Notes: generated by a model from the sequence alone, not told the origin. 64,000 nt of DNA from Candidatus Latescibacterota bacterium (GCA_965248265.1 CBDFJF010000002.1:704001-768000); one strand, 5' to 3'; shown: positions 22,142 to 47,862, counted from the stretch's first letter. Program-made: numbers and translations.

Positions 22142-24088
22142 TTGGCTGTGACGCCATCGTCGTCGCCCTTCACTGCCAAGGGTTTTCTGGTCGGTGCGAT
22201 CGGCTCGCTGCTGGTAAGCATGTGCGCGCCCTACGTCGTGTTCATGCTCCAGGCTTCGTCCATGGGCATCAACAGCTCCTCCCCGGGCGCCATCTTCTTC
22301 TTTTTCATCCTCGTATTCGTAGTCAATACCCTGCTCGGCCTGATCAAGCGGCGTTTCGCTCTGGGTCGAGGCGACCTCGTCCTCGTCTACGCCATGCTGA
22401 TGATGGCGGTGACGGTGCCGACGTACAATTTTGTCAACTACTTGCTGGCGATGGTCACGGGACCGTACTACCTGGCCAGTGCCGAGAACGAGTTCGAGCA
22501 GGTCTATCACCCACACATCGCCGACTGGATGGTGCCGCAGGATCATCAGGCGATCGTCGGTTTGTTCGAGGGGTTGCCGCGGGGGCAGTCGATCCCGTGG
22601 GGTGCCTGGGTCGAGCCACTCGGGTACTGGTTCGCCTTCTTCCTGGCGCTCAGCTTCATGATGATCTGCATGGGCACGATCCTGCACCGGCAGTGGTCGC
22701 AGCACGAGCGCCTGAGCTATCCGATGGTGCAGCTGCCGACCAAGATGATCGAAGGCAGCGATTCAACCTCTGCCCGCATACTGCCGTTCTTCAAGAGCAA
22801 GGCCATGTGGGTGGGGTTTGCCGTCCCCTTCACCCTGTTCAGTTTCACCGGGTTGCACCACTACTATCCCGGTGTGCCCGATTTCCCCTTCTACCTGGGA
22901 TGGGTGCACTGGTTTCGCGGTCTGGATGCCTGGGGCGAGGGGATCGCGCTGAGCTACGCCTGGGTCGGATTTTTCTACCTCGTCGATCTCGATATCTCTT
23001 TCAGCATCTGGTTTTTCTACCTGATGCTGAAACTGCAGGGTGGATTGTTCCGCCATCTGGGCATCGCCAGTACCGAAAAACTGAGCCAGTACGAGTACTC
23101 GCAGACAGCGGATTTCTCCCATCAGGCGGCTGGAGCCGTCATCGTCTTCGTCCTCTACGGCTTGTGGATGGCTCGTGGCCACCTGCGCGATGTCATCATC
23201 AAGGCCTGGCGTCCGTCGCAAGGCGTCGACGACAGTGAGGAGCTGATGCCCTACCGCCTGGCCTTCTTCGGCGGTATCGCTTCAGCCCTGTTCGTGTGTG
23301 TGTGGTTGTGGCGCTCGGGCATTCCGCTGATCGTCGTTCCCGTGTTCTTCGCCATCTGCATCATCTATTACATCTTCATCACCCGCGTCGTCGCCGCCAG
23401 CGGGGTGCCGACGGCCCGTCCACCTCTGGTCGCTCCGTACTTCGTGATCTCGGGCATGGGAACATCGATTCTGGGAGCCAAGGGCCTGGTGGCGATGGGG
23501 TTTACGATGGTATGGCAGGCGGAGATGCGCCTGTTTCCGATGCTGGCCTGTGCCAATGCGCTCAAGCTGGCGGAGACCGTTCGCGGTCCCAAGAGGCGGC
23601 TGCTGTGGGGCATGCTGCTGGCATTGGTCTGCGGACTGGTGGGTTCCACCTGGGTGAACATGCACATCGGTTACGGCTATGGTGGCAATAACCTGGGAAG
23701 CTATCCCGGATTCGCCTATAACTGGGATTACATGCTATCGTGGATGCACAACCCGACGGAAGCCAATGTCAGAGGATGGTTCTTCACCGGCATCGGCGGT
23801 ACCATCGAGGGATTGCTGCTGCTGGCACAAAAGCGCTGGTTCTGGTGGCCGCTGCATCCGCTCGGGTTCACGGTAGCCGTCGGCTGGTTGACCAGCGAAA
23901 TCTGGTTCCCCGCCTTCGTGGCCTGGATTCTCAAGCTCGCCATCGTCGGCTACGGCGGTGTCCGTCTGTATCAGTTGTTCAAGCCATTCTTTCTGGGAAT
24001 GATTCTGGGTGAGGTGACGGTGGCCGGGTTCTGGGCCTTCGTCGATTCGATTACGGGTGCCACGGGAAATGTCATCACCTATATGTGA
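22142..24088 (+). CDS. Polytopic membrane protein, DUF6785/DUF6784-like (putative peptide/solute transporter)
   Basis: Many TM helices; RQW..HERL.YP, WPLHPLGF and PFFLG.ILGE motifs. Confidence 0.75.
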   Translation: MAVTPSSSPFTAKGFLVGAIGSLLVSMCAPYVVFMLQASSMGINSSSPGAIFFFFILVFVVNTLLGLIKRRFALGRGDLVLVYAMLMMAVTVPTYNFVNYLLAMVTGPYYLASAENEFEQVYHPHIADWMVPQDHQAIVGLFEGLPRGQSIPWGAWVEPLGYWFAFFLALSFMMICMGTILHRQWSQHERLSYPMVQLPTKMIEGSDSTSARILPFFKSKAMWVGFAVPFTLFSFTGLHHYYPGVPDFPFYLGWVHWFRGLDAWGEGIALSYAWVGFFYLVDLDISFSIWFFYLMLKLQGGLFRHLGIASTEKLSQYEYSQTADFSHQAAGAVIVFVLYGLWMARGHLRDVIIKAWRPSQGVDDSEELMPYRLAFFGGIASALFVCVWLWRSGIPLIVVPVFFAICIIYYIFITRVVAASGVPTARPPLVAPYFVISGMGTSILGAKGLVAMGFTMVWQAEMRLFPMLACANALKLAETVRGPKRRLLWGMLLALVCGLVGSTWVNMHIGYGYGGNNLGSYPGFAYNWDYMLSWMHNPTEANVRGWFFTGIGGTIEGLLLLAQKRWFWWPLHPLGFTVAVGWLTSEIWFPAFVAWILKLAIVGYGGVRLYQLFKPFFLGMILGEVTVAGFWAFVDSITGATGNVITYM

Positions 24089-25831: not shown

Positions 25832-26689
25832 GTGATCTGGTTACTCCTCGCAGTACTCACCTCATTCAGTTTTGGCCAACTGTTCAAGTGGTCCCAACGC
25901 CGCGGCTTCTATGCGCCAGTTGTGGTGACGACGAACTACTTTGTCGTGGCCCTGATGCTGAGCGCCGTCCTGATTCTAGGCCGTGGCTTCAACCTCGATC
26001 TACAGGTTCTCCTGGTCGGCTCGGTAACTGGCGTGGCCTTCATCACTTCCATGCTGCTGTGGACGTGGGCATTGACCGTTTCGAACGTGACTACTGCGCT
26101 CATGGCATTCCGCTTGTCCATGCTCGTGCCCATCGTTGCCGGCGCCGTGGTGTGGCAAGAGGAGGTGTCCCGGGTGCAACTGCTCGGGATTTTTGTAGCG
26201 CTGTGCTCGTTGTTGTTGATGAGCATGGGGGGACGCGCCAGTGTCCAGCGCATCTCTCGTGTTCAGCAAGTCCTGATTGCCTTCGGCATATTCGTGATGC
26301 AGGGAATCTCGCAGCTGTGCAATCGTTGGGTGCGGCCAGCCGGTCTGGACGACCAGCATCTCGAGGTGATCGTGATCACGGCCACTACCGCCGCTGTGAT
26401 CGGGTCGGCGGCCGTGTTGCTGCTACCCCGGCACCCGGACAGTGCGCCGCGCGTGAGTCTGCCAGCTCTGCGTATGGGGGCGGGAATCGGCCTCTTCAAC
26501 GGCATCGCACTGGTTATCATGTTGATCGCCCTGAGCCGTTTCGACGGGGCTCAGTACTACCCGATCAACGGCTGCGCCGTCGTCATCATGGACTGCCTGT
26601 TCGCACATTTTCTGTGGAAAGAGCGCCTGTCAGCTCTTACCATCGCGGGAGCGGCATTGGGTGGCTGTTCGATGTTTCTGGTTTTTTGA
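25832..26689 (+). CDS. DMT/EamA family membrane transporter
   Basis: About 10 TM segments in two repeats; C-terminal LWKERLS...AG. Confidence 0.8.
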   Translation: MIWLLLAVLTSFSFGQLFKWSQRRGFYAPVVVTTNYFVVALMLSAVLILGRGFNLDLQVLLVGSVTGVAFITSMLLWTWALTVSNVTTALMAFRLSMLVPIVAGAVVWQEEVSRVQLLGIFVALCSLLLMSMGGRASVQRISRVQQVLIAFGIFVMQGISQLCNRWVRPAGLDDQHLEVIVITATTAAVIGSAAVLLLPRHPDSAPRVSLPALRMGAGIGLFNGIALVIMLIALSRFDGAQYYPINGCAVVIMDCLFAHFLWKERLSALTIAGAALGGCSMFLVF

Positions 26690-26708: not shown

Positions 26709-27557
26709 CTACAGGTTCCAGCGGTCCTCGAAGGCCTCTTCCACGCTGAGCTTGACCATGCTGAAGCGCTTGGCCGAGGGGATGTGGCGGGCGGTCCATT
26801 TGACGGCGAACTCGATGTCGGCATCCGTGTAGCCGTCGTTTTTCAGGTCGGAATACTGGTCGAGGTCCTGCTCGAGGTGATCATCGGGCGGCATCTCGTG
26901 CACCAGCTCGTAGAACATCATCACCAGCACCGACTCCTGATCTGCGGTCAGCGAATCGGCAGGGGCCGGCGTTGTTTCCTCGACGGCGTCATCGCCGTCT
27001 GCTGAGGTCTGCAACTCCTGGGTGCCGGCATCCACCGCGTCTTCCTCCGTACCGGCAACGGCGGAAGCAGCTTCTTGGGTAGTGCTGTCATCGGGTACCC
27101 CTCCAGACTCGTAGAGTTTCTTGTAACGCGTGATCATATCATTGGCGTCGTTCAGCCGGTCTGCCAACACACGAATCAGATTCCGGTAGACCTTGATCCG
27201 CAGGTCCACGTGCCGATCGAGGAGGGATTCGAAATCGTGGTGCTCGATTCGGAGCAAGCGGGATGGCTCACTGGTGATGACGGTTGCCGACCGAGGCTTG
27301 CGATTCACGAATCCCATTTCGCCGACCGTCGTCACCGGACGTACGTCCGCAAGAGCGGTGCCATCACGGCTGACGATTTTGAGTGCGCCTTCAAGCAGGA
27401 TGAAGAAGCGACGACTCGCCGTTCCGTACTCGCAGATGACCTCGTCCACGGGGCATTTGGTCGTTTTGCAGATCTCCATGAAGAGCTTGACGTCGCGTGG
27501 TTTGAGGCCGAAAAACAGCGGCACCTTCTGCGTCAATTGCTGCGCCAGACTGGGCAC
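26709..27557 (-). CDS. Cyclic nucleotide-binding domain protein with acidic linker and unidentified C-terminal helical domain
   Basis: VPLF.GL, FFILLEG, intact phosphate-binding cassette GEMGFVNRKPRSAT, C-helix LADRL. Confidence 0.88.
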   Translation of the reverse strand: MPSLAQQLTQKVPLFFGLKPRDVKLFMEICKTTKCPVDEVICEYGTASRRFFILLEGALKIVSRDGTALADVRPVTTVGEMGFVNRKPRSATVITSEPSRLLRIEHHDFESLLDRHVDLRIKVYRNLIRVLADRLNDANDMITRYKKLYESGGVPDDSTTQEAASAVAGTEEDAVDAGTQELQTSADGDDAVEETTPAPADSLTADQESVLVMMFYELVHEMPPDDHLEQDLDQYSDLKNDGYTDADIEFAVKWTARHIPSAKRFSMVKLSVEEAFEDRWNL

Positions 27558-27560
27558 GGA

Positions 27561-27935
27561 TCAGGCCTCCCCTTCCATGACCTTGGAGATCTCGCCGGCA
27601 ATACGCTGTACCTTGAAAGGCTTGGCGACTACCTTCCTGACCTCGTGCTCCAGCAGAACCTCAAGGACTTTGGGTGTCAAGTATCCGGAGATGACGATGA
27701 TGGGAACCTGAGTGCCTTTCTTGCGTATGTAGCGGACGAAGTCGTCACCGTGAATGGCCGGCATCTTGATGTCGAGCAGCATGAGGGAGATGCTCTCTCG
27801 CTGCAGGATCGCCCAAGCCTCGGTCGCACGATCTGCTGTTGACGTTTCGTACCCCATGGCGAGGCTGATGTCGCGCAGCAGGTCGCGATATTCCTGGGAG
27901 TTATCGACGATCAAGATGCGCTTGGGCATCATCAC
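27561..27935 (-). CDS. Single-domain response regulator (receiver)
   Basis: ILIVDN, LLDIKMP, ISG, KPF. Confidence 0.92.
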   Translation of the reverse strand: MMMPKRILIVDNSQEYRDLLRDISLAMGYETSTADRATEAWAILQRESISLMLLDIKMPAIHGDDFVRYIRKKGTQVPIIVISGYLTPKVLEVLLEHEVRKVVAKPFKVQRIAGEISKVMEGEA

Positions 27936-29178
27936 CCTCGTCGGTCACGGGTGCAGCATCCAAGATCGGCAGGGTCACCGTGAAGGTAGCGCCCTTTCCC
28001 TCCTGACTGTGTACGGCAATGGAGGCTCCATGATCCTCCAGAATTCTGAAGACGATGCTGAGGCCCAAGCCGGCACCGGTCTCCTCCTTGGTGGTGTAAA
28101 ACGGATCGAAGATGTGCTCCTTCACTTGATCAGACATCCCCAAACCCGAATCACACACCCGCACTTCTATGCAATCTCCTGACACCGCCGATGTGATGTC
28201 GATTTCTCCACCCTCAGGCATGGCCTCCGCGGCGTTCAGCATCAGATTCGTGAAAACTTCCTTTACATCAGCTGGATTGACGAAGGTTACAGGCAAGGTG
28301 GCCAATTCCGTTTTCCAGGTAATCTCTCCATGTCCCGCTCGCGATTGTTCGGCCAGCGCTCCGGCATCCGCCGCCGCCGCGGTCACCAACTCATTGATAT
28401 TCTCGGCGGTGCGGCTGCGCCCGACGCCCAACCGAGTGGCACGATGAATCCGATTGATGAGCTCTTGTCCTTCTTCCGCCGACGCCAGGATGGCAGACAT
28501 CGCCTGCTCAGGCTCCTTGCCAAAGTTGAGGAACAGATCGGCTCTTCCAATGATGAGTCCCAGGATATGGCGCACGGTATGAGTGACGTCCGCGGCCAGA
28601 TCGCCGAGAGCGCGCAACTGCTCGAGTTGCGCGATTTTGTTTTGTGCCGCTTTGAGCTCCCGGTAGGCCTGAGACAGGTTCGTGTGTAACCGTGCGTTGT
28701 GTAGGGCGGCTGCTGCCTGGAGGGCGAACGAATGCAACAGGGACTCGTCATTGTCGTCGAACGGCCCGACTTCGCCTTCGCGTCCTTCCCGGTCAGCTAC
28801 GAGCAGCAGGCCAGACATGACATCGCGGCACTCGAGTGGGACGATGCAGACGAAGCGGAAGCCGTCGACGCTGCTCTCGCACTGGACCATCTCGCGCGTT
28901 TGCCAAGCCTGCTCGAGTTGAGGAATCGTGGTTGCCGAAGCGGCATCTTGCCCGAGCCCTGCACTGCCCATAACCTCGAACGACGCCCCATCCTGTTCGC
29001 GCATCAGTAGCAGAGCCGAACGAGCATCGACCATCATCACCGCTCGCTGCAACAACTGCTCGGCGACGCGAAGTGGGTCGAGGGATTCGCTCAATGCGAG
29101 GCCGACTTCATACAGCATCTCCATCTGCATGAGCCGCCTGCGGCCCTCGAATCCAGTCGCTTCACTATCCGTGTTCAT
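27901..29178 (-). CDS. GAF-domain sensor histidine kinase (soluble, atypical H-box)
   Basis: GAF domain, H-box DVTHTVRH, N-box NLMLNAAEAM, DSGLGM, FDPFYTTK, GAGLGL. Start set at MNTDSE. Confidence 0.9.
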   Translation of the reverse strand: MNTDSEATGFEGRRRLMQMEMLYEVGLALSESLDPLRVAEQLLQRAVMMVDARSALLLMREQDGASFEVMGSAGLGQDAASATTIPQLEQAWQTREMVQCESSVDGFRFVCIVPLECRDVMSGLLLVADREGREGEVGPFDDNDESLLHSFALQAAAALHNARLHTNLSQAYRELKAAQNKIAQLEQLRALGDLAADVTHTVRHILGLIIGRADLFLNFGKEPEQAMSAILASAEEGQELINRIHRATRLGVGRSRTAENINELVTAAAADAGALAEQSRAGHGEITWKTELATLPVTFVNPADVKEVFTNLMLNAAEAMPEGGEIDITSAVSGDCIEVRVCDSGLGMSDQVKEHIFDPFYTTKEETGAGLGLSIVFRILEDHGASIAVHSQEGKGATFTVTLPILDAAPVTDEGDDAQAHLDRR

Positions 29179-29372
29179 TGCGCTCTCTTCCGCCCCGGTT
29201 AGGTTTGCCCTAAGATATTGCAAAAGCAGACGATTAACCCAAAAAAAGTCGGCAGCGCCGTGGACCAATCTCGGCGCTCGGGCAACAACAGTACGCACTC
29301 GAGCCATCGTGAAGCCGTATATTGTAGCATGATCTAAACGGGGCCCAGGCGAACAGGAACGGAGATATTGCT

Positions 29373-29783
29373 GTGGAAGACAAACGCAACGATGTCGATC
29401 TGATCATTCCCATGATACCGGACATGGAGCTGACGGCCAGTAAGACCGCCGAGGCCGTGGGCGAGTTCATGGAGTTGGATAAGGACAAGATTGACGAAAT
29501 CAAGCTAGCCCTTATCGAAGCTTGCATCAACGCGATAGAGCACAGCAAGAGCGAAGATCGACGAGTCAGCATCAATTTCGAGATCGGTGAAGAAGAGTTG
29601 ACCCTTTACATATCTGACCGCGGAAAGGGCTTCGATCTCGTCAAGGTCCATGAGGAGCTCGGTCGAGGAGCTCGCGCAGATCGTCGTGGGTGGGGGCTCA
29701 AGATCATGGAAGAATTGATGGACCGGGTTGAGGTCAACTCCGACGAGAGCGGCACCATGATTACGATGATCAAGCGCCGCTGA
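29373..29783 (+). CDS. Anti-sigma factor / serine kinase, RsbW/SpoIIAB-like (HATPase_c_2)
   Basis: IKLALIEACINAIEHS, ISDRGKGFD, RGWGLKIMEELMDRVE. Confidence 0.92.
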   Translation: MEDKRNDVDLIIPMIPDMELTASKTAEAVGEFMELDKDKIDEIKLALIEACINAIEHSKSEDRRVSINFEIGEEELTLYISDRGKGFDLVKVHEELGRGARADRRGWGLKIMEELMDRVEVNSDESGTMITMIKRR

Positions 29784-29794
29784 AAAGGGAAGGA

Positions 29795-31780
29795 ATGGCA
29801 GCTGACGGTCACTCTGAGCGCCTGACGCAGGAGCTTCAAGACGCGAACTTTCAGCTCAACCGAAAGCTGGCGCAGATGGAGACCCTGCACGAAGCGGGTT
29901 TGAATCTCAGTGCGTCGTTGCAGGTCCAGGAAGTAATCGAGGAGTTTCTGCGCAATGCTGTCGCCGTCGTAGACGCGGGCAGCGGTTTTCTATTCCTCAA
30001 GAACGAAAAGACGAGACACTTCGGCGTGGCTGCGCATGCGAACATGAGCGAGACACAACAAGAGATGCTCAAGGATCCCGCATTCCGAAAGCATATGCAG
30101 CGTGTGCTGAAGGGTCGCTCGTTTATGATGCTCGGCGAAGGAGATTTCCCCACGGGGTTCTCAGGGCGTCACGTACTGGTGGTTCCAGCCCCTCCTGTGG
30201 GTTTCATAGGCGTGATTGACAAAGAAAGTCGCGAGGGGGTGCAGCCCTTCGAGGATGAGGACGGCCAGCTGCTGGGATTGATGGGGCAGCATGCCGGGAT
30301 GGCTCTCGCCAACGCGCGCCTCTACCGGCAGATGGTCGAAGAGAAGAACCTGGCCTTGAATATCTTCGACAGCGTCGCAGACGGTGTGATCTCGGTGGAT
30401 TTGCAGGGGACGATCATTCGCGTTAACCACGCTGTGAAACGGATGTTCAGCGATGAGAAGGTGTTCTTCGGCAAATCCTGTATCAATCTTTTCAAGCGCC
30501 TGGGGTGCATGAATATCGCTCAGGCCGTCCTGTTTTCGCTCGAAGACGGACACCCCCGTGCTGTGACGAATGACGAGCCCCGGGTCGAAGGTCGGGGTCC
30601 GGACGTCAACCTGAATGCGAAGATCACCCCCCTACGTGGCCAACAGGGCGAAATGGAGGGACTCGTCCTGGCGTTGGAGGATCTCACAGAAGAAACCCGC
30701 GTGCGCGACATGTTCAAGCAGTTCGCCAGCGACCAGGTGGTCGAGTTGCTCTTGAAAGATGGCTCGGCACCGGCCCTGGGTGGACAGACGCTCCAGGCGA
30801 CGATGTTGTTCATGGATATTGCGGGCTACACCGAGCTGCTGGGCAACATTGGCAGCGAAGAGATGGTGCGCCTGATGAACGACTGTTACACCCGCATGGT
30901 GGACATTGTCTTCAAGCACAACGGCACGCTCGACAAATACACGGGAGACGGATTCTTCGTCGTTTTCGGAGCGCCGCTCAGCCTGGACAACGACAGCCAC
31001 AGGGCTGTTCAATGTGCCTTGGAGATTGTGCAGGAACTGGATCGATTCAACACTGCGCACAAGCTCTCCTTTGGCGTCCGCCTGGGCATCAGTCGAGGCA
31101 CCGTGGTGGCCGGCAACATCGGTTCACCACGTAGAATGGAATACAGCGTAATCGGGCCAGACGTCAATCTGGCCCAGCGGTTGTGTGACCAGGCTCTGTC
31201 CGGAGAGATTCTGATCGGAGAAAGCGTTTTCGCGGAAGTTGCTGAGCAGTTCGAGCTCGCTACCATCGGCAGGCTGCGTTTCAAGGGGATTCGCGAACCG
31301 CTGGACGTGTATCAGGTCGTGGGTCCCACCGGCGTCCGCCTCTTGCCGGAGCGGGCAGGCCGGGCGCGAAAGGATGGGGCGACTGTCGATCTGAACATCC
31401 CGATGGAGTCATCCATGGAGCTCACGGCAAGCAACACGGCCGCGTCCGTGGCTGGACTCATGGGGCTCGATCCCATCAAGACCGACGAAGTCAAGCTTGC
31501 CGTGATCGAAGCCTGCATCAACGCCTTCGAACACAGTCAAAGCAAGGACCAGCGTCTCAACGTGGGTTTTTCGATCGGCGAGAAAGAGTTCACCGTGGTG
31601 ATGACCGACCGCGGGCATGGCTTCGATGTGTCGGAGGCCGCCTCCAAAGTCAAGAAGCGAAGAGCTCGTGGCGACCAGCGCCGTGGCTGGGGCCTGGAGC
31701 TCATCGACACCTACATGGACGAGGTTGAGATTGAATCCGGTCAGGACGGCACGATCCTGACGCTGGTCAAATATCGGTAA
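29795..31780 (+). CDS. GAF-PAS-class III adenylate cyclase fused to C-terminal RsbW-like kinase domain
   Basis: GAF (~aa30-180), PAS (IFDSVADGVISVD...VN), cyclase LFMDIAGYT/LDKYTGDG/GNIGS..RMEYSVIG.DVNLAQRL, then EACINAFEHS...DRGHGFD...RGWGL.LI..YMDEVE (~aa528-661). Confidence 0.9.
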   Translation: MAADGHSERLTQELQDANFQLNRKLAQMETLHEAGLNLSASLQVQEVIEEFLRNAVAVVDAGSGFLFLKNEKTRHFGVAAHANMSETQQEMLKDPAFRKHMQRVLKGRSFMMLGEGDFPTGFSGRHVLVVPAPPVGFIGVIDKESREGVQPFEDEDGQLLGLMGQHAGMALANARLYRQMVEEKNLALNIFDSVADGVISVDLQGTIIRVNHAVKRMFSDEKVFFGKSCINLFKRLGCMNIAQAVLFSLEDGHPRAVTNDEPRVEGRGPDVNLNAKITPLRGQQGEMEGLVLALEDLTEETRVRDMFKQFASDQVVELLLKDGSAPALGGQTLQATMLFMDIAGYTELLGNIGSEEMVRLMNDCYTRMVDIVFKHNGTLDKYTGDGFFVVFGAPLSLDNDSHRAVQCALEIVQELDRFNTAHKLSFGVRLGISRGTVVAGNIGSPRRMEYSVIGPDVNLAQRLCDQALSGEILIGESVFAEVAEQFELATIGRLRFKGIREPLDVYQVVGPTGVRLLPERAGRARKDGATVDLNIPMESSMELTASNTAASVAGLMGLDPIKTDEVKLAVIEACINAFEHSQSKDQRLNVGFSIGEKEFTVVMTDRGHGFDVSEAASKVKKRRARGDQRRGWGLELIDTYMDEVEIESGQDGTILTLVKYR

Positions 31781-31819
31781 TTGAAATCAAAAACGCCTTT
31801 GCGAACGGAGATCGAAGCG

Positions 31820-32170
31820 ATGGCAGATGATGCACAAACACGAGTACGAAGAGTGGATTCAGCCGCTGTGGTAGAGGCCCCCGAATACATAAACAACATC
31901 GGCGGAGAGAGTCTGGCGGAGGCCTGCAAGGGCCTGATGGATGGCAATGTTTTGGGGATCGTCCTGAACCTGGAAAGCTGTAACATAGCCAACAGTGTGG
32001 GGATCTCTTTCTTGATTGAGATTCTGGAGAGCTTGAGAGAAAAGGATGGCAAGCTGGCTTTCTGTTGCGTGACGCCGACGATCGCGAAGACATTCCAAAT
32101 CATGGGGTTACTGCAGACCGCCACCGTACACGAGTCCGAGCAAGAAGCGCTGCAGGCGGTAAGTGGTTAA
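31820..32170 (+). CDS. STAS-domain anti-sigma factor antagonist (RsbV/SpoIIAA-like)
   Basis: IVLNLESCNIANSVGISFL (phosphoacceptor Ser position), I.KTF.IMGL...HESEQEAL. GGAG RBS before ATG 31820. Confidence 0.9.
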   Translation: MADDAQTRVRRVDSAAVVEAPEYINNIGGESLAEACKGLMDGNVLGIVLNLESCNIANSVGISFLIEILESLREKDGKLAFCCVTPTIAKTFQIMGLLQTATVHESEQEALQAVSG

Positions 32171-32184
32171 CACCCGAGCTCAAT

Positions 32185-32571
32185 ATGCAATTCTTCAAAG
32201 ACCTGTTCGGGGGTAAGAAACGTCAAAGTCCGCGTATCGCCATCGACTGGTGGGTAGACGCCCAGCTGCCAGCCACGGACCGCTTTATCGGTTTTCACGC
32301 CAACGACATCAGCTCTTTTGGGCTGCGCCTCTCGGGGGAATCGGACGAGGCGTTCAAGCGTGTCCTGACGGACGAAGGGCGCGCCAGAATGTTGTTGAGA
32401 GTGCCCGGTGAGGCCGGGACCCACTCGGTTGAGGCTCAGCTGGTATGGGGACTGGGTGGAAGAGATCGCTTCCAGACCGGGTGGACGTTCGAGGAGATCG
32501 AGGACACCGCCACGGCTGCTATCTGCCGCTACATCGACGCTCACCACAGCGACGAGCTGGCCGAGAGATAG
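32185..32571 (+). CDS. PilZ-domain protein
   Basis: RQSPR (RxxxR) and DISSFG (D/NxSxxG) c-di-GMP-binding motifs, followed by A.LVW...G..F. Confidence 0.75.
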   Translation: MQFFKDLFGGKKRQSPRIAIDWWVDAQLPATDRFIGFHANDISSFGLRLSGESDEAFKRVLTDEGRARMLLRVPGEAGTHSVEAQLVWGLGGRDRFQTGWTFEEIEDTATAAICRYIDAHHSDELAER

Positions 32572-32593: not shown

Positions 32594-33694
32594 TCAAAAC
32601 AATTCAGCGGCGCGCAGCGCTTCCACGCCCGATTCGCGATCCTCCAGAGGTAGCCGTACGGGTTGATTGTCGTCCAATTGTGATTGGTAGACGGCCATCA
32701 CCAGTTCCAGCGATCGTCTACCGACGACACCATCGCTGCGCAACCCTCCATTCCCTTCCAGCGCGGCCACCAGCTCTTCGAGGGCTACAACATAGGTGGA
32801 GACCGGTTGTGGAGAATCGACCTCGCGTTCTTTTAGGGAGTTCCACTGAAAACCGGAATCCGGCTCGTAATCACCGGCTACGGACTCATACAAGCGTAGC
32901 TTCTCCCAGGCCATGGAAATGACGCCGCGGCTGCCGCGCAGCTGGAAGTCGGTGTCGGTGTAGTCACTGAGCTCAGCCGAGTGGATCAGACCAGTGGCAC
33001 CGCTCCTGTACTTCATGAAGGCGGCGGCGAAATCCTCGACCGCCCACGGACGCTGACGCTGTTCGGCCATCCCACAAAGCCACTCCACTTCCCCTGCGAA
33101 CGAGTCCATCATGTCGAAATAATGGGTGAAGTCGTGCAGCAAGGGACCTTCGTTGTCGCTGCGCCAGGATGGGTCGGGTTTGCCACCGTCCAAATAGCAC
33201 GTGAGCTGGAACAGGTCACCGATAACGCCTTCGCGGATCAGCTCCTGCGCGTGGCACCACTGCGCGTGCCAGCGCCGGTTGTGGTTTATCTGCAACAGCA
33301 CAGAGCTGCGGTCACAGGCCTCGATCATGCGATCGCAATCGGCCAGTGACAGGGCCATCGGTTTTTCGCAGATGATGGCGCGGGTAGCGGGGGCCGCCGC
33401 GCAATCTTCGACCATCTGCGCGTGCAGTTCGGGGTGGGTGGCGATGATGCACAGATCCGGTTTGACCTGCTCCAGCATCTGGCGATGATCGTGGAACAGG
33501 GACTCCACCCCGAAGCGTGTGCCGAAATCCTCCAGTTTTTTGCGGCCGCGGTTGACGCCGGCCACGAGTTCACAGGATTTCACCGCAACGACGGCCTCGG
33601 CATGATTGTCCGGCAGGTCGCCGAAGCTGAACTGATAACCGACCCGGCCGGTGCCGATCAATGCCACGCGATATGTCGCCAACCGGCTACCCAC
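32594..33694 (-). CDS. Gfo/Idh/MocA family oxidoreductase
   Basis: VALIGTGRVG, CEKPMA, NHNRR, HDFTHYFD. Confidence 0.93.
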   Translation of the reverse strand: MGSRLATYRVALIGTGRVGYQFSFGDLPDNHAEAVVAVKSCELVAGVNRGRKKLEDFGTRFGVESLFHDHRQMLEQVKPDLCIIATHPELHAQMVEDCAAAPATRAIICEKPMALSLADCDRMIEACDRSSVLLQINHNRRWHAQWCHAQELIREGVIGDLFQLTCYLDGGKPDPSWRSDNEGPLLHDFTHYFDMMDSFAGEVEWLCGMAEQRQRPWAVEDFAAAFMKYRSGATGLIHSAELSDYTDTDFQLRGSRGVISMAWEKLRLYESVAGDYEPDSGFQWNSLKEREVDSPQPVSTYVVALEELVAALEGNGGLRSDGVVGRRSLELVMAVYQSQLDDNQPVRLPLEDRESGVEALRAAELF

Positions 33695-40766: not shown

Positions 40767-41261
40767 ATGAGCGCCAGGACAGACATCGATATCGAAGAGC
40801 TTTACCAGAGGTATGGACCGATGGTCCTGCGGCGATGCAGGCAGCTGCTGGGGGATGAGGATGAGGCCCTCGATGCGATGCAGGACGTGTTCGTGCAGAT
40901 GCTGACCCACAAGGACCGCATGAAGGTCGAGTACCCGTCGAGCCTTCTCTACCGGATTGCGACCAACCTGAGCCTCAATAAGATTCGCTCCCGGAAACGC
41001 CGGCCGGATACTCCTGGCGAAGAGTTTTTACAACAGGTCGCTGACCTGGATGAGTTAGAGCCGAAGCTGGAAGCACGGTCCGTACTGGCGGCACTCTTTG
41101 GCCGCCATCCGGAATCGACCAGAACCATAGCCGTCCTTCACTACCGTGATGGCATGACGCTGGAGGAAGTCGCCAACGAGGTTGGGATGTCCGTATCAGG
41201 AGTTCGCAAGCGTTTGCGCAATCTGCGCGGCAGTTTGAAAGAAGTCTTAGAGGACACATGA
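40767..41261 (+). CDS. ECF sigma-70 family sigma factor
   Basis: LYQRYGPMVLRRCRQLL.DEDEALDAMQDVF, LYRIATN..LN, region 4 DGMTLEEVA..VG.S...VRKRL. Confidence 0.95.
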   Translation: MSARTDIDIEELYQRYGPMVLRRCRQLLGDEDEALDAMQDVFVQMLTHKDRMKVEYPSSLLYRIATNLSLNKIRSRKRRPDTPGEEFLQQVADLDELEPKLEARSVLAALFGRHPESTRTIAVLHYRDGMTLEEVANEVGMSVSGVRKRLRNLRGSLKEVLEDT

Positions 41262-42097
41262 CGACGGAAAATCAACATCCGAACGTGCCAGACTGGAAGC
41301 TCGAGCGCTTCCTGCTCGGAGAGCTGCCCGCGGATGAGATGGATCGCATCCGCGACCGGGTCGATGGGGATCCGACGCTGGAGCGCCAACTTCAGAGCCT
41401 GCGTGCCGACGATGATGAGGTGCGCGAGCGCTATCCCGCCGCCTGGATGGCGCGTCAGATCGAGCGTCGGGCAACCCAATCGACCGTGCAGGAAGTCCGG
41501 ATGCCGTCCTCCTCGTCCGTCCAGTGGTCGCGGTTGTGGCCGGTACCTGCCGCCGTCGGCTTGGCCGCCATGCTGGCTTTCGTCGACATCGGAGATGACA
41601 CCCGTGATGGTGATGGTGTCGGGCAAGATCCGATACCGGGAATTCGCCTCAAAGGGAGCGGTCCCCGACTCAGCCTTCACCGCAAGATCGACAACGGCAG
41701 TGAGCAGCTGCATGACGGAGGTATAGGTCGAAGCGGCGACCTGATACAGGTTCGCTACCACGCTGCCGGTCGTTCGTATGGCGCTATTCTGTCCGTCGAC
41801 GGCAACGGTGCGGTGACACTGCACCATCCCTCTGTGGGCGATCAGGCACAACTGCTGCAGACGGCCGGGCTGGTGTCGCTGGCGTTTTCCATAGAACTGG
41901 ATGATGCCCCGCATTGGGAGCGGTTCTACTTCGTCACTTCCCACACCGAGTTTGAGTTGGCCGCGCTACTCGATGCCGCCGCCGCCGCCGGGTTGGCGCG
42001 CCGCGATTCGCTCGAGCTCGACAACGACGCGCTGGAGCAGTTCATCATGACATTGAACAAGGAGCCGCTGCAACAAGCCGCAGGAGGTGGGTCATGA
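41258..42097 (+). CDS. Membrane-anchored anti-sigma factor-like protein with extracytoplasmic DUF4384-like domain (ActD-like)
   Basis: N-terminal LERFLLGEL anti-sigma-like helices without Zn ligands, single TM, R.KG, GD.IQ..Y...Y..ILSVDG.G.VT.H.P, S.ELDDAP..ERF. ATGA overlap with the sigma gene. Confidence 0.75.
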   Translation: MTTENQHPNVPDWKLERFLLGELPADEMDRIRDRVDGDPTLERQLQSLRADDDEVRERYPAAWMARQIERRATQSTVQEVRMPSSSSVQWSRLWPVPAAVGLAAMLAFVDIGDDTRDGDGVGQDPIPGIRLKGSGPRLSLHRKIDNGSEQLHDGGIGRSGDLIQVRYHAAGRSYGAILSVDGNGAVTLHHPSVGDQAQLLQTAGLVSLAFSIELDDAPHWERFYFVTSHTEFELAALLDAAAAAGLARRDSLELDNDALEQFIMTLNKEPLQQAAGGGS

Positions 42098-43875
42098 TCC
42101 CGGGCACGCTCGTCCGCAGCGGAGCGCTCGCGGCCATGGTTGTTGTCGGTCTTGCGATAGAACCCGTGTTCGGAGTCGAATCGATGCGCCGATTCGTGCT
42201 CGCGGCAGGCGCCAATCTCGGAGGTCAACACCGCATCCCACTGCAATACGCGATCTCCGATGCCGAGAAATTCACCGATGTGATGGTGGCGATGGGTGGC
42301 GTGCGCGCGACAGATCGCGTGCTGCTGTCGGACCCTGATCGCTCGGGATTTCAGCGCGCGGTCGAGGAATTGCGGACCCAGGTGGCGGCTGCCAAGCTCG
42401 AGGCCCGGCGCACCGAGGTCCTCGTCTACTATTCGGGGCACGCTGACGAGGAGGGTTTACTGATCGGCGAGGAACGGCTCGGTTACCGGGAGCTGCGGGG
42501 GTTGATGGATCGCATCGACGCGGACGTGCGCATCGCCATCCTGGATGCCTGTGCCTCGGGGGCCATCACCCGTATAAAGGGTGGTACCCGTCGCAATGCC
42601 TTCGAGGTGGACACCTCCTCCGACATGCGCGGCTATGCCTTCCTGACCTCGAGTTCGGCGGAGGAAACAGCTCAGGAATCGGATCGCATCCAGGCCTCCT
42701 TCTTCACGCATTACCTGGTATCGGGCATGCGGGGTGGAGCCGACGTGTCCGGAGACGGCAAGGTGACGCTGAACGAAGCCTATCAGTTTGCCTACAACGA
42801 GACCTTGAATCGGACGGTGGAGTCCCAGGGTGGAGCTCAACACCCGGCCTATCATATCAATCTCTCCGGCACAGGCGATGTCGTCATGACGGACGTCCGT
42901 CAGACATCGGCGGGCCTGGTTTTGGGAGAGGGACTGAACGGCCGGGTTTTTCTGCGCAATGCTGATGACCAGCTTGTGGCCGAGCTGCATAAACCCGAAG
43001 GGCGGATCGTCGAAATCGCCCTCGAGGCGGGTGCCTACGGGATTCACCTGGAGCACAAGGAGGATCTGTTCGTCGCCCGAACAGATGTGGTCAAGGGACA
43101 GCGAACCGAGCTGGTGCGATCGCAATTCACTCCGGTGACACGGGAACAGACCGCCATGCGCGGGTTGCCCGGTGGCCGGCGAACGTATTCAGACCCGCGC
43201 GCGGCGATGCTGCCGTTCGGTGGATTGGCGGGCCGGGCCCGGCTGGAGTTCCATCTGGGAACCGTCGGCCCGCAGCCGAAACTGCTGCCGGATTCGGGGG
43301 AGGAGAATCTACGCGGGCAGGAAACCGCCGATACCGAGGGCACCGCGGACTTCACTCCCATCCCGGTGGCGAACGTCGATCCCTGGAGCGTGCTCTCCGG
43401 TCTGACTCTCGGCTGTTGGATAACGGAGGACTTTTCCGTCAACCTGAGCTACTCGGCGCTGGGCAGTGAGGTCGCCAACATTGTTGGGCCTCCCAGTGTC
43501 GATTCCAGACTGAGCCGCGTCGACATCAGCTTGGCCTCCGTACAGTTGGGCGTGGGCCGGCATTTCGATCTACCATACCTGTCGCCGCTATTGAAGGCCC
43601 AGGTCTCGACCTCGGTCGGCTCGTTCATCGGCCATGTCGACGGGCGAACGGTCGGTGAAGCACCGCTGGCCTGGAAGCGCACCATGCGTTCCGTGGGTGG
43701 CCAGATCGGTGCAGGCATCGATCTTCAGATCAACCGCCATGTCATGCTGGGTGCTCGCGGTGGCTACAATCTCATGGCCGATTTCGAAGAGCCATTGGGT
43801 GGCCGCGACAACTACAGCGGCGCCGAGTTCAGCCTCGGGTTGAGCTGGCTCTTCGGCGGAGGCATTCCCAGGTAG
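42094..43875 (+). CDS. Exported caspase-family (peptidase C14) protease with C-terminal outer-membrane beta-barrel-like domain
   Basis: Signal peptide, L.YA..DA, catalytic dyad YYSGHAD and ILDACASG, SFFTH.LVSG.RG.AD..GDGKVTL.EAY, Q.P. C-terminal alternating beta-strands end in FSLGLSWLF. Confidence 0.85.
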   Translation: MIPGTLVRSGALAAMVVVGLAIEPVFGVESMRRFVLAAGANLGGQHRIPLQYAISDAEKFTDVMVAMGGVRATDRVLLSDPDRSGFQRAVEELRTQVAAAKLEARRTEVLVYYSGHADEEGLLIGEERLGYRELRGLMDRIDADVRIAILDACASGAITRIKGGTRRNAFEVDTSSDMRGYAFLTSSSAEETAQESDRIQASFFTHYLVSGMRGGADVSGDGKVTLNEAYQFAYNETLNRTVESQGGAQHPAYHINLSGTGDVVMTDVRQTSAGLVLGEGLNGRVFLRNADDQLVAELHKPEGRIVEIALEAGAYGIHLEHKEDLFVARTDVVKGQRTELVRSQFTPVTREQTAMRGLPGGRRTYSDPRAAMLPFGGLAGRARLEFHLGTVGPQPKLLPDSGEENLRGQETADTEGTADFTPIPVANVDPWSVLSGLTLGCWITEDFSVNLSYSALGSEVANIVGPPSVDSRLSRVDISLASVQLGVGRHFDLPYLSPLLKAQVSTSVGSFIGHVDGRTVGEAPLAWKRTMRSVGGQIGAGIDLQINRHVMLGARGGYNLMADFEEPLGGRDNYSGAEFSLGLSWLFGGGIPR

Positions 43876-46752: not shown

Positions 46753-46806
46753 ACCGAATAGACAGAACCGGATCAGGCCGTTTATTCCGAGCAAGGGACG
46801 CGTACG

Positions 46807-47862
46807 ATGCAGGAGTCCGCGGGTCGCGAGACCGAAGAGTTGGGCGTTGGAGGCGACAAGGAGCCGGGTGAGGAGATCCCCGTCTACCAGAGGGTCGCCA
46901 TCATCATGGTCGCTCTGGGTGAAGAAGCCTCTGGACAGGTGATGAAATACCTGTCCGACTTCGAGATCGAGGAGATCACCCAGGCTATCGCCGACACCAA
47001 GAACGTGACCCCGCAAATCATGGATCTGGTGCTGGAAGACTTCGAGCAGCACCTGATGGCCGGCCATTACATCAGCCAGGGTGGTGTCGATTTCGCGCGC
47101 GACGTGCTCGAACGGGCTGTCGGTGCGCGTAAGGCGCAGGAAATACTGGAACGCGTCAACACCCGGGCTTCGTCCGGCTTCTACATCCTCAAGAACGTGG
47201 CGGCGCAGCAGATCGCGCCGTTCATCTCCAACGAGCATCCGCAGACGATAGGCCTGATTCTTTCGCAATTAGATCCTGACCAGGCGGCCGGGATTCTCTC
47301 ACAGTTGCCCGAGCGCATGCAATCGGAGGTCGCTTACCGCATCGCGACCATGGAGAACATCACTCCCAATGTGCTGGAGCAGATCGAGGAGAGCCTGGAG
47401 GCATCGTTGCGCGACATGCTCACAGGCAACCAGGACGTCGGGGGCCCTAAGGTCGTCGCCGACATCCTCAACCTGACCGGATCCAGTGTGGAGAAGAATG
47501 TGCTGGAGCAGATGGATGGGACGGATCCCGAGGTAGCAGAAGAGGTGCGCAATCTCATGTTCGTGTTCGCCGATCTCGTGAAACTGACCGACAAGGAGCT
47601 CCAGGTGCTGATGCGGGAAGTGGAGCAGAAAGACCTCGTCGTTGCCCTGAAGGCGGCCGACCAGGACCTCAAGGACAAGGTGCTGTCGAACATGTCCGAG
47701 CGGGTACGCAGCTTCATCGAGGAAGAGATGGAGTTTCTCGGCCCCATGCGCTTGAGCGAAGTCGAGGAGATTCAACTGCGGGTCGTGCAGCAGGCCAGAC
47801 AGCTGGAAGACCAGGGTCAGATTACGATAACCCGCGGGGACGCCAGCGAAGAGTTCGTCTAA
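46807..47862 (+). CDS. fliG: Flagellar motor switch protein FliG (orphan)
   Basis: AIIMVALGEE, GG..FA..VL, EHPQT, GG...VA.ILN, MFVF.DL, ALK.A, NMS.R, GPMRLSEVE. Confidence 0.93.
   Translation: MQESAGRETEELGVGGDKEPGEEIPVYQRVAIIMVALGEEASGQVMKYLSDFEIEEITQAIADTKNVTPQIMDLVLEDFEQHLMAGHYISQGGVDFARDVLERAVGARKAQEILERVNTRASSGFYILKNVAAQQIAPFISNEHPQTIGLILSQLDPDQAAGILSQLPERMQSEVAYRIATMENITPNVLEQIEESLEASLRDMLTGNQDVGGPKVVADILNLTGSSVEKNVLEQMDGTDPEVAEEVRNLMFVFADLVKLTDKELQVLMREVEQKDLVVALKAADQDLKDKVLSNMSERVRSFIEEEMEFLGPMRLSEVEEIQLRVVQQARQLEDQGQITITRGDASEEFV

Follow-up and report, generated by a model that had tools for sequence, protein, structure and literature searches.

The window analyzed here is a stretch of 64,000 nucleotides (G000:C2:704001-768000) from a bacterial genome designated G000, which comprises 7.3 Mb in two contigs (C1 and C2) and whose relatives are mostly labelled Candidatus Latescibacterota. 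Between positions 26709 and 32571 it harbors a divergent cluster of seven genes, in which a protein joining GAF and PAS domains to a class III adenylate cyclase and to an RsbW-like serine kinase (hereafter, the fusion) is followed immediately by a STAS gene (Table 1). Domains were assigned by Pfam, which bore out a preliminary description of the locus that had named the same seven genes and domains. In the following, G and L labels designate the genomes of relatives and the loci fetched for comparison, respectively.

Table 1. Genes of the divergent cluster, its flanks, and other features of the window; positions are counted from the first nucleotide of the window.
Feature	Position	Strand	Length (amino acids, aa)	Match or remark
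Cyclic nucleotide (cNMP)-binding protein	26709..27557	-	282	cNMP_binding, E 3.2e-17
Single-domain response-regulator receiver	27561..27935	-	124	Response_reg, E 4.2e-22
Soluble histidine kinase, GAF-HisKA-HATPase_c	27901..29307	-	425 from most likely start, ATG 29178	GAF_3; HisKA, weak (1.3e-3); HATPase_c, 6.2e-24
Free-standing RsbW-like GHKL serine kinase	29373..29783	+	136	HATPase_c_2, E 3.5e-24
GAF-PAS-cyclase-kinase fusion	29795..31780	+	661	GAF_3, weak (4.1e-3); PAS_4; Guanylate_cyc, 3.1e-28; HATPase_c_2, 1.4e-21
STAS anti-sigma-antagonist-like protein	31781..32170	+	116 from most likely start, ATG 31820	STAS, E 6.6e-11
Small PilZ-like protein	32065-32571 (reading frame); 32185..32571 (likely gene)	+	128 from most likely start, ATG 32185	PilZ, E 0.004, 17.9 bits (cut-off 22.5)
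EamA transporter (flank)	25832-26689	+		
GFO/IDH/MocA oxidoreductase (flank)	32594-33694	-		
ECF-type sigma factor	40767-41261	+	164	First gene of the unit below
Unit with ECF-type sigma factor	40767-43875	+		
DUF6785/DUF6784 protein	22142-24088	+	648	DUF6785, E 1.8e-125
FliG paralogue	46762-47859	+		phmmer, E ~1e-105

Three of the open reading frames (ORFs) were re-delimited by comparison with their homologues. The histidine kinase most likely starts at an internal ATG, since its orthologues aligned only from query residue 45-49 onwards. The STAS protein most likely starts where its length matches that of its homologues (115-121 aa), and the PilZ-like protein where it acquires the 128 aa shared by all of its full-length homologues. 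Genes on the same strand were separated by gaps of 11-14 bases or overlapped, a spacing that fits two divergent operons, and both flanks of the cluster were occupied by convergent, unrelated genes. Nothing out of the ordinary was observed in the base composition of the cluster, and a scan for promoters and terminators returned no more sites than were obtained with shuffled sequences. No PP2C phosphatase or sigma factor gene was recognized by Pfam within positions 26709-32571, the closest sigma-70-family genes of the window being one of the extracytoplasmic function (ECF) type and another at the window's left edge.

The fusion is composed of a GAF domain (residues ~44-173), a PAS domain (~190-301), a class III adenylate cyclase domain (~334-508), and an RsbW-like kinase domain (~545-659), and neither a REC nor a PP2C domain was found in it by Pfam. 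In class III cyclases, two Asp residues bind the metals, an Asn and an Arg act on the transition state, and a Lys combined with Asp, Thr, or Ser specifies adenine. The Guanylate_cyc domain of the fusion scored 99.1 bits against a Pfam cut-off of 21.9, presented the features of a class III cyclase, and could be aligned with the solved cyclases Cya2 (2w01, E 2.8e-31) and Pseudomonas aeruginosa CyaB (3r5g, E 3.3e-26). These alignments, together with one of 28 fusion-family members (A1), revealed that the G000 enzyme retains both metal-binding aspartates (D341 and D385), the adenine-type pair K381 and S451, N458, and R462. Among the 28 members, D341, K381, D385, and R462 are invariant, S451 is at least nearly so, and N458 varies in some. 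At the positions that determine the substrate, Lys replaces the Glu of the guanylate cyclase Cya2 and Ser the Thr of CyaB, and this combination predicts an adenylate cyclase. The kinase boxes of the fusion (E572/N576/H580, D605-G607-G609, and G631-G633) were also found invariant at every one of these residues in the same 28 members. Judged from these residues, both enzymatic domains look active. A complex prediction with two copies of the cyclase domain (residues 322-528) and two of the kinase domain (529-661) gave no answer (score 0.00, mark 0.32).

In its GAF-PAS-cyclase part, the fusion resembles the GAF/PAS-sensor class III adenylate cyclases, in which GAF-PAS likewise precedes a catalytic domain of the homodimeric type with a Lys/Ser(Thr) adenine-type pair. 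These multi-domain enzymes include those of the cyanobacterial CyaB1 type. To our knowledge, in the GAF/PAS class III cyclases described so far the catalytic domain is either the last one or is followed by C-terminal domains of other kinds.

The two kinase domains of the cluster scored 85.7 and 77.3 bits for HATPase_c_2 (Pfam cut-off 27.4). The free-standing kinase, whose best solved relative was Bacillus subtilis RsbW (6m36, E 1.1e-14), contains an N box with E49, N53, and H57, a G1 box with D82-G84-G86, and a G2 box with G106-G108. Its NCBIfam scores lay below the equivalog cut-offs of both RsbW (NF003144, 68.4 vs. 145 bits) and SpoIIAB (TIGR01925, 67 vs. 135 bits), as did that of the fused domain for RsbW (NF003144, 56.7 vs. 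145 bits), so that both are members of the superfamily and not orthologues of RsbW or SpoIIAB. In the kinase-domain tree, the fused domain of G000 was placed inside a clade of 12 rows, most of them fused (support 99/89), and the free-standing kinase clustered with its free-standing counterparts in G008 and G021 (support 86/93). According to this tree, the fused and free-standing kinases are two paralogous lineages united at the G000 locus.

The STAS protein scored 42.4 bits (Pfam cut-off 22.6), and its solved relatives were matched at E 1.5e-7. The candidate phospho-acceptor is Ser59 (Ser72 if counted from the TTG start), within the motif N-S-[IV]-G, which aligned with the acceptor of SpoIIAA, the first Ser of DSSG, a position occupied by Ala in entries 1tid/1til. 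This Ser was present in 68 of the 69 rows of the STAS family alignment, the remaining row having a gap. The RsbW-RsbV and SpoIIAB-SpoIIAA pairs of B. subtilis (6m36, 1th8, 1tid, 1auz) were thus the closest solved relatives of the kinase and the STAS protein, with ATP boxes and acceptor Ser in alignment. The G000 locus differs from them in its sub-equivalog scores, in having neither a SigB/SigF-type sigma factor nor a PP2C in the operon, and in carrying one kinase copy fused to a cyclase. A search of the whole G000 genome returned strong HATPase_c_2 matches only for the two kinase domains of the cluster, which were also the only RsbW-type domains detected by phmmer. Four STAS matches were obtained, namely the cluster protein, a SulP transporter, an MlaE fusion, and a weak match of 114 aa, and the cluster STAS was the sole one of its type found. 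With no further kinase domain of the RsbW type and no second STAS to match found in G000, they would have to work with each other.

Alignments indicate that the GAF-PAS-cyclase-kinase fusion is a conserved protein family. PF00211 and PF13581 occurred together in 61 of the best 120 protein clusters listed, at 44-79% identity, and all of the listed clusters below this range were devoid of the kinase domain. The cyclase-kinase part was found in 13 of the 168 representative genomes of the phylum, distributed over 12 of its 49 genera. Related loci were recovered by alignment-based scans, single-protein queries having yielded none, and 18 fusion loci remained after the merging of near-identical copies (G000, G125, G078, G081, G011, G006, G021, G008, G026, G140, G079, G107, L128, L129, L130, L132, L136, and L189), with fragments (G004, L126/127, and L135/137) left out of the count. 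A STAS gene was found directly next to the fusion in 11 of the 17 loci with visible downstream DNA and, in a further one (G107), 1.9 kb downstream. It had been claimed that the kinase/STAS pair was tied to a cyclase and not visibly to a sigma factor, and both the conservation of the fusion and this recurrent adjacency support that claim.

Apart from STAS, gene order around the fusion varied widely among the 18 loci. An extra RsbW-like gene lay immediately upstream of the fusion in four of them, and a gene with a cNMP domain lay no more than two genes away in four (G000, G125, L129, and L189). A Reg_prop/Y_Y_Y-SpoIIE phosphatase gene was placed convergently after STAS in three loci, and an RpoS/RpoD-like sigma factor gene was found ~1.5 kb or less upstream of the fusion, on the same strand, in six. 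In G008, G021, and G006, which have no STAS adjacent to the fusion, an RsbW-STAS pair was located elsewhere, each time beside a cNMP-domain gene, the order being RsbW-STAS and then cNMP-REC in G008 and G021, and a cNMP gene before RsbW-STAS in G006.

Some loci presented particular configurations. In G011, ~2.7 kb of DNA with a DUF772 and a DDE_3 transposase gene separates the cyclase part of the fusion gene (L125:11741-13949) from the kinase part. The G107 locus (L245:8435-9538, minus strand) encodes a short cyclase-RsbW protein of 368 aa with no in-frame GAF-PAS. At L038:5245-6491, L244:5411-6650, and L117:2409-3365, an additional STAS gene and a gene for a protein of 290-400 aa, composed of an unannotated N-terminus and a divergent RsbW-like C-terminal domain, were observed just upstream of the fusion. 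Such extra STAS and RsbW-like genes upstream of several fusions suggest multi-layer switches. It was also considered that the fused kinase might have replaced the ~170-aa N-terminal domain of unfused GAF enzymes, a docking arrangement of the RsbT-RsbU kind, and this idea was rejected because the long fusions of L117, L130, L136, and L039 keep that domain.

The last gene of the plus strand had led to the proposal of a cyclic di-GMP (c-di-GMP) input via PilZ. PilZ receptors of c-di-GMP are characterized by the motifs RxxxR and D/NxSxxG, and the translated ORF indeed presents RQSPR (R13-R17) and DISSFG (D41-G46) at a typical spacing. However, its homologues were confined to nine clusters of 69-95% identity, with a precomputed PilZ match in one of the nine, and phmmer (E <= 1e-3) retrieved none from the other fetched loci, leaving G000 as the only one of the 18 fusion loci with a PilZ gene nearby (a count based on phmmer in all loci and Pfam in a subset of neighbours). 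The PilZ-like gene is therefore, as far as these homologues indicate, lineage-specific and not a member of a conserved module, and the proposed c-di-GMP input would at best be a peculiarity of this lineage.

Orthologous RsbW-STAS pairs, ~40-55% identical, were also encountered in other phyla, where the protein encoded next has an N-terminal domain and a GAF domain common to these loci, and an output domain that varies. The output was a SpoIIE PP2C in Acidobacteriota/Thermoanaerobaculia and Poribacteria (four loci by Pfam), GGDEF in Sericytochromatia (three loci checked), and a PAS-adenylate cyclase in Marinimicrobia and in single-amplified genomes (SAGs) labelled Bacteroidetes (two loci by Pfam and four more by phmmer), the latter two with the order RsbW-STAS-[GAF-GAF-PAS-cyclase]. 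This interchange of PP2C, GGDEF, and PAS-cyclase behind a homologous sensor module is in agreement with the earlier suggestion that the cyclase occupies the place usually held by a PP2C. In the cyclase-type loci scanned by Pfam (L073, L109, L093, and L045), a large sensor PP2C adjoined RsbW-STAS in four out of four. A cNMP-SpoIIE gene follows RsbW-STAS in L045, with a GAF-cyclase gene 3.4 kb upstream; cNMP-REC genes follow RsbW-STAS at L120 and L121; and HK-REC-RsbW-STAS-[GAF-cyclase], where HK denotes a histidine kinase, are encoded on one strand in G014. Since sensor PP2C, kinase, STAS, and GAF-cyclase recur together, the Latescibacterota form can be regarded as a variant in which the kinase is fused to the cyclase.

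These data also delimit the notion of a system with neither phosphatase nor sigma factor, which holds for positions 26709-32571 and does not extend to the genome or to its relatives. Five SpoIIE-type PP2Cs (two with 7TMR-DISM, one with nSTAND2, and two with unannotated N-termini), one PP2C_2, and 25 sigma-70-family genes were identified in G000, with no PP2C near the cluster, so that the expression describes the locus and not the organism. Among relatives, a PP2C adjoins three of the 18 fusion loci and all four of the unfused cyclase loci scanned, and a sigma factor gene precedes the fusion in six of the 18.

It could be argued that the seven genes are independent signalling neighbours, the fusion being a product of neutral domain accretion with no regulatory coupling. 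The patchy distribution of the fusion (13 of 168 genomes), the highly variable gene order around it, the restriction of PilZ to the G000 locus, and the interruption of the G011 fusion by two transposase genes speak in favor of such an explanation. However, the catalytic residues of both domains are kept throughout the family, 11 of 17 loci have STAS right beside the fusion, G000 has no other RsbW-type kinase domains and no other matching STAS, and these components turn up repeatedly, whether joined or separate, in no fewer than four phylum-level groups going by the labels of the records. We regard fortuitous neighbourhood as highly improbable.

Other arrangements of the unfused pairs were noticed in the same survey. 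The Sericytochromatia loci RsbW-STAS-[GAF-GGDEF] correspond to L053:6977-9872, L058:7019-9936, and L067:6923-9416, and in L053 and L058 a conserved ORF of 165 aa, with no Pfam match, lies between STAS and the GGDEF cyclase. In Acidobacteriota/Thermoanaerobaculia, a GAF-sigma-54 enhancer-binding protein (EBP) precedes RsbW-STAS-[GAF-PP2C] (L087:6812-8785, plus strand; L068:4999-6495; L092:4951-6519). The L087 protein is itself a GAF-Sigma54_activat-AAA_lid-HATPase_c_2 fusion with no HTH_8 match and with STAS next to it, so that a sigma-54 activator may here be the target of a partner switch.

The sigma factor genes upstream of some fusions raise a different explanation, in which the fused RsbW-like domain would be an anti-sigma factor of the CrsR/HsbR type that sequesters an RpoS/RpoD-like sigma factor until the STAS protein frees it, and the GAF-PAS sensor would act through the cyclase in parallel. 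According to a previous study, HsbR of P. aeruginosa and CrsR of Shewanella oneidensis are REC-PP2C-kinase/anti-sigma proteins that bind and sequester RpoS and have separate STAS antagonists, HsbA and CrsA (PMC6482189). The fusion shares with these proteins an RsbW-like domain at the C-terminus of a multi-domain sensor and a separate STAS antagonist; it differs in its GAF-PAS-adenylate cyclase-kinase composition and in having no REC or PP2C domain, the phosphatase of HsbR and CrsR residing in the same polypeptide. In line with an anti-sigma role, a sigma factor gene of 290-320 aa, containing regions 1.2, 2, 3, and 4, was found directly upstream in G008, G021, G011, G140, L128, and L132. Its best NCBIfam matches were RpoD and RpoS (~250 bits, below cut-offs), and its orthologue is kept in G000 (C1:2041978-2042994, E 5.7e-137), where about nine or ten RpoS/RpoD-like paralogues of ~290-320 aa exist. 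In G000, however, this orthologue has EBP and LOG neighbours on the other contig, away from the fusion, so that the adjacency of sigma and fusion may be inherited synteny of one subclade. Moreover, phmmer with this sigma factor detected no sigma gene near any unfused RsbW-STAS-cyclase locus, and the factor is of the group 1/2 type and not of the SigB/F/G type (118.6 bits vs. a cut-off of 234). The sigma-LOG-fusion adjacency, once considered the mark of a dedicated sigma factor, is weakened by the EBP-sigma-LOG arrangement of G000, and it is retained here within the anti-sigma explanation, which we consider unlikely. This explanation could also be compatible with control of the cyclase, in the form of a bifunctional protein.

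The minus strand of the cluster is constituted by a unit of histidine kinase, receiver, and cNMP-binding protein, and this three-gene unit is kept in G008, G021, G004, and G125, where the receiver orthologue likewise has the GAF kinase on one side and the cNMP gene on the other. When the N-terminal part of the fusion was compared by phmmer with all ORFs of G000, it matched itself and the cluster histidine kinase only (7.7e-14). The GAF domain of this kinase is thus the only G000 paralogue of the fusion's GAF region, which hints at a shared ligand.

The cNMP-binding protein comprises an N-terminal CAP-like domain with an RSA phosphate-binding motif, an acidic disordered linker (residues ~159-202), and a C-terminal four-helix domain. 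Its AlphaFold2 model had a predicted local distance difference test (pLDDT) score of 84.5, and the best fold match was Thermus thermophilus CAP (Z 18.2, root-mean-square deviation 1.7, 131 residues aligned). CRP/FNR transcription factors carry a helix-turn-helix DNA-binding domain C-terminal to the cNMP domain, and no HTH_Crp match was returned by Pfam here in spite of the CAP-like cNMP domain. The C-terminal domain is conserved in the family alignment (A3, 27 sequences) and, when modelled alone (pLDDT 86.4), it gave Z 6.0 with the DnaD-like 2zc2 (5.4 with another DnaD-like structure) and 5.8 with G39P (1no1), a weak likeness that lies within the noise for helical bundles. A Foldseek search of this domain against the PDB returned no match at E <= 0.001, and comparison of the whole model with viral structures yielded nothing usable. 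A structure atlas pointed to unnamed viral clusters and to Phg_2220_C at 0.90, which can be taken as a lead only. Full-length orthologues were present in seven of the 168 genomes of the phylum. The fusion occurred in five of these seven and in eight of the other 161, counts that come from related, non-independent genomes and are therefore given with no statistical test.

The position of the cNMP gene had suggested that it encodes the reader of the cyclic AMP (cAMP) made by the fusion. This link has some support, since cNMP genes recur. They lie near the fusion in four of 18 loci, and relatives have cNMP-PP2C or cNMP-REC genes behind unfused RsbW-STAS pairs. The same genes admit the opposite direction, however, with cAMP as an input, in which the cyclase would feed cNMP-gated regulators (cNMP-PP2C, cNMP-REC, and the cNMP-four-helix protein) that set the phosphorylation of STAS, the target of STAS would lie elsewhere, and the fusion would place both enzymes under one GAF-PAS sensor. 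The RsbW-STAS-[cNMP-SpoIIE] arrangement of L045, with its GAF-cyclase upstream, and the RsbW-STAS-[cNMP-REC] arrangement of G008 and G021 speak in favor of such an input. On the other hand, neither a phosphatase nor a kinase domain is present in the cNMP protein of the cluster, and no cNMP domain was found by Pfam in any of the five SpoIIE proteins of G000. In addition, direct coupling is the simpler explanation for cyclase and kinase being kept in one polypeptide at 44-79% identity. We consider a pure input role for cAMP improbable.

Other features of the window and of the genome may be mentioned briefly. The ECF-type sigma gene belongs to a separate unit ~8 kb from the cluster, in which it is accompanied by an ORF of 279 aa with no Pfam match and by a gene for a caspase-domain/outer-membrane beta-barrel protein. 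On the other side, the gene of the DUF6785/DUF6784 protein is followed by those of a TPR protein and a short-chain dehydrogenase. G000 encodes no fewer than four full-length paralogues of FliG, an unusual number, which were found by phmmer at similar E-values (~1e-105 each), one of them in the window and the others at C1:265574, C1:384407, and C1:1501997. A FliG gene was also observed convergently after fusion-STAS in L128 and L132.

The control of sigma factors is the textbook role of partner switches, and a few cases in which they govern c-di-GMP cyclases have been described. In P. aeruginosa, according to two reports, the PP2C SiaA, the kinase SiaB, and the phospho-partner SiaC control the diguanylate cyclase SiaD (PMC7647112, PMC8457831), and another states that HsbA binds the diguanylate cyclase HsbD (PMC6482189). 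The reading that we tentatively prefer, with a probability judged slightly below even, is that the cluster is a SiaABCD-like partner switch with an adenylate cyclase as output enzyme and the kinase fused to it. The target of this switch would be cAMP synthesis, either in place of a sigma factor or alongside one, a reading that has, in our estimation, a nearly even chance of being right. SiaABCD offers the closest characterized logic. Both systems combine a kinase and a small partner of the anti-sigma-antagonist fold with a nucleotide cyclase where a sigma factor would be usual, and the full set, including the PP2C, is found in single loci of the relatives. They differ in that the cyclase is of class III and not GGDEF, the kinase is fused to it, and no PP2C is encoded at the G000 locus. 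Furthermore, the acceptor of SiaC is Thr68, while the partner here matches the Pfam STAS family and has a Ser at the acceptor position.

In the course of events that we infer for this SiaABCD-like switch, the GAF-PAS-cyclase-kinase protein would dimerize, and unphosphorylated STAS would dock on the RsbW-like domain and alter the output of the cyclase. That docking raises cAMP output is a guess by analogy with SiaC and SiaD. Both RsbW-type kinases, the fused and the free-standing one, would phosphorylate Ser59 of STAS, ending the interaction, and sensor PP2Cs, encoded elsewhere in G000 and next to the operon in relatives, would reset it. The cAMP produced would then be read by the divergently encoded cNMP-binding protein. 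What the sequences themselves establish is the domain composition, the integrity of the catalytic and acceptor residues, the conservation of the fusion, and the linkage of the genes.

Several observations weigh against this proposal. The fusion is patchy, having not been found in 155 of the 168 genomes of the phylum, and no adjacent STAS was seen in five of the 17 informative loci. The HK-REC-cNMP operon also occurs apart from the fusion in G008, G021, and G004, and the cNMP protein is present in G157 and G023, in neither of which a fusion was detected. G000 contains at least 15 cNMP-domain ORFs and eight class III cyclases, which denote an unusually rich cAMP signalling, and the pairing of the fusion cyclase with the cluster cNMP reader is therefore not exclusive. 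The cNMP-PP2C of L045 points to a switch that can take cAMP as its input and not as its output. Finally, RpoS/RpoD-like sigma genes precede six of the 18 fusions, and RsbW-like domains fused to sensor proteins sequester RpoS in the CrsR/HsbR systems (PMC6482189).

On the side of coupling, the covalent joining of cyclase and kinase constitutes evidence of the Rosetta-stone type. No paper on a cyclase-RsbW fusion or on a STAS-controlled adenylate cyclase was found in a literature search whose full-text coverage excludes most subscription journals, so that absence is unproven, and the top papers co-mentioning adenylate cyclase and partner-switch terms appear unrelated by title or abstract (for example, two-hybrid methods). 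The fusion and its STAS neighbour suggest an apparently undescribed way of controlling cAMP production, in which a Ser-kinase/STAS switch would gate its synthesis, and they offer a simple system of two small proteins and ATP, with cAMP as the read-out.

Since unfused modules with sensor PP2Cs exist in several mostly uncultured phyla, such a switch, if real, would give class III cyclases a further input of general reach and would widen the range of partner-switch outputs. A broader proposal, possible but doubtful at present, is that the RsbW-like domain is a built-in regulator of the cyclase, releasable by STAS, with an enzyme taking the place of the sigma factor. The RsbW-STAS clade would then be a plug-in phospho-switch for GAF-sensor enzymes that make cAMP (Latescibacterota, Marinimicrobia, and Gemmatimonadota) or c-di-GMP (Sericytochromatia), or that act as sigma-54 enhancer-binding ATPases (Acidobacteriota, with the one fusion of L087). 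If this were true, protein phosphorylation by partner switches would stand, as a general layer, above the control of second messengers and of sigma-54 in a number of uncultured phyla.

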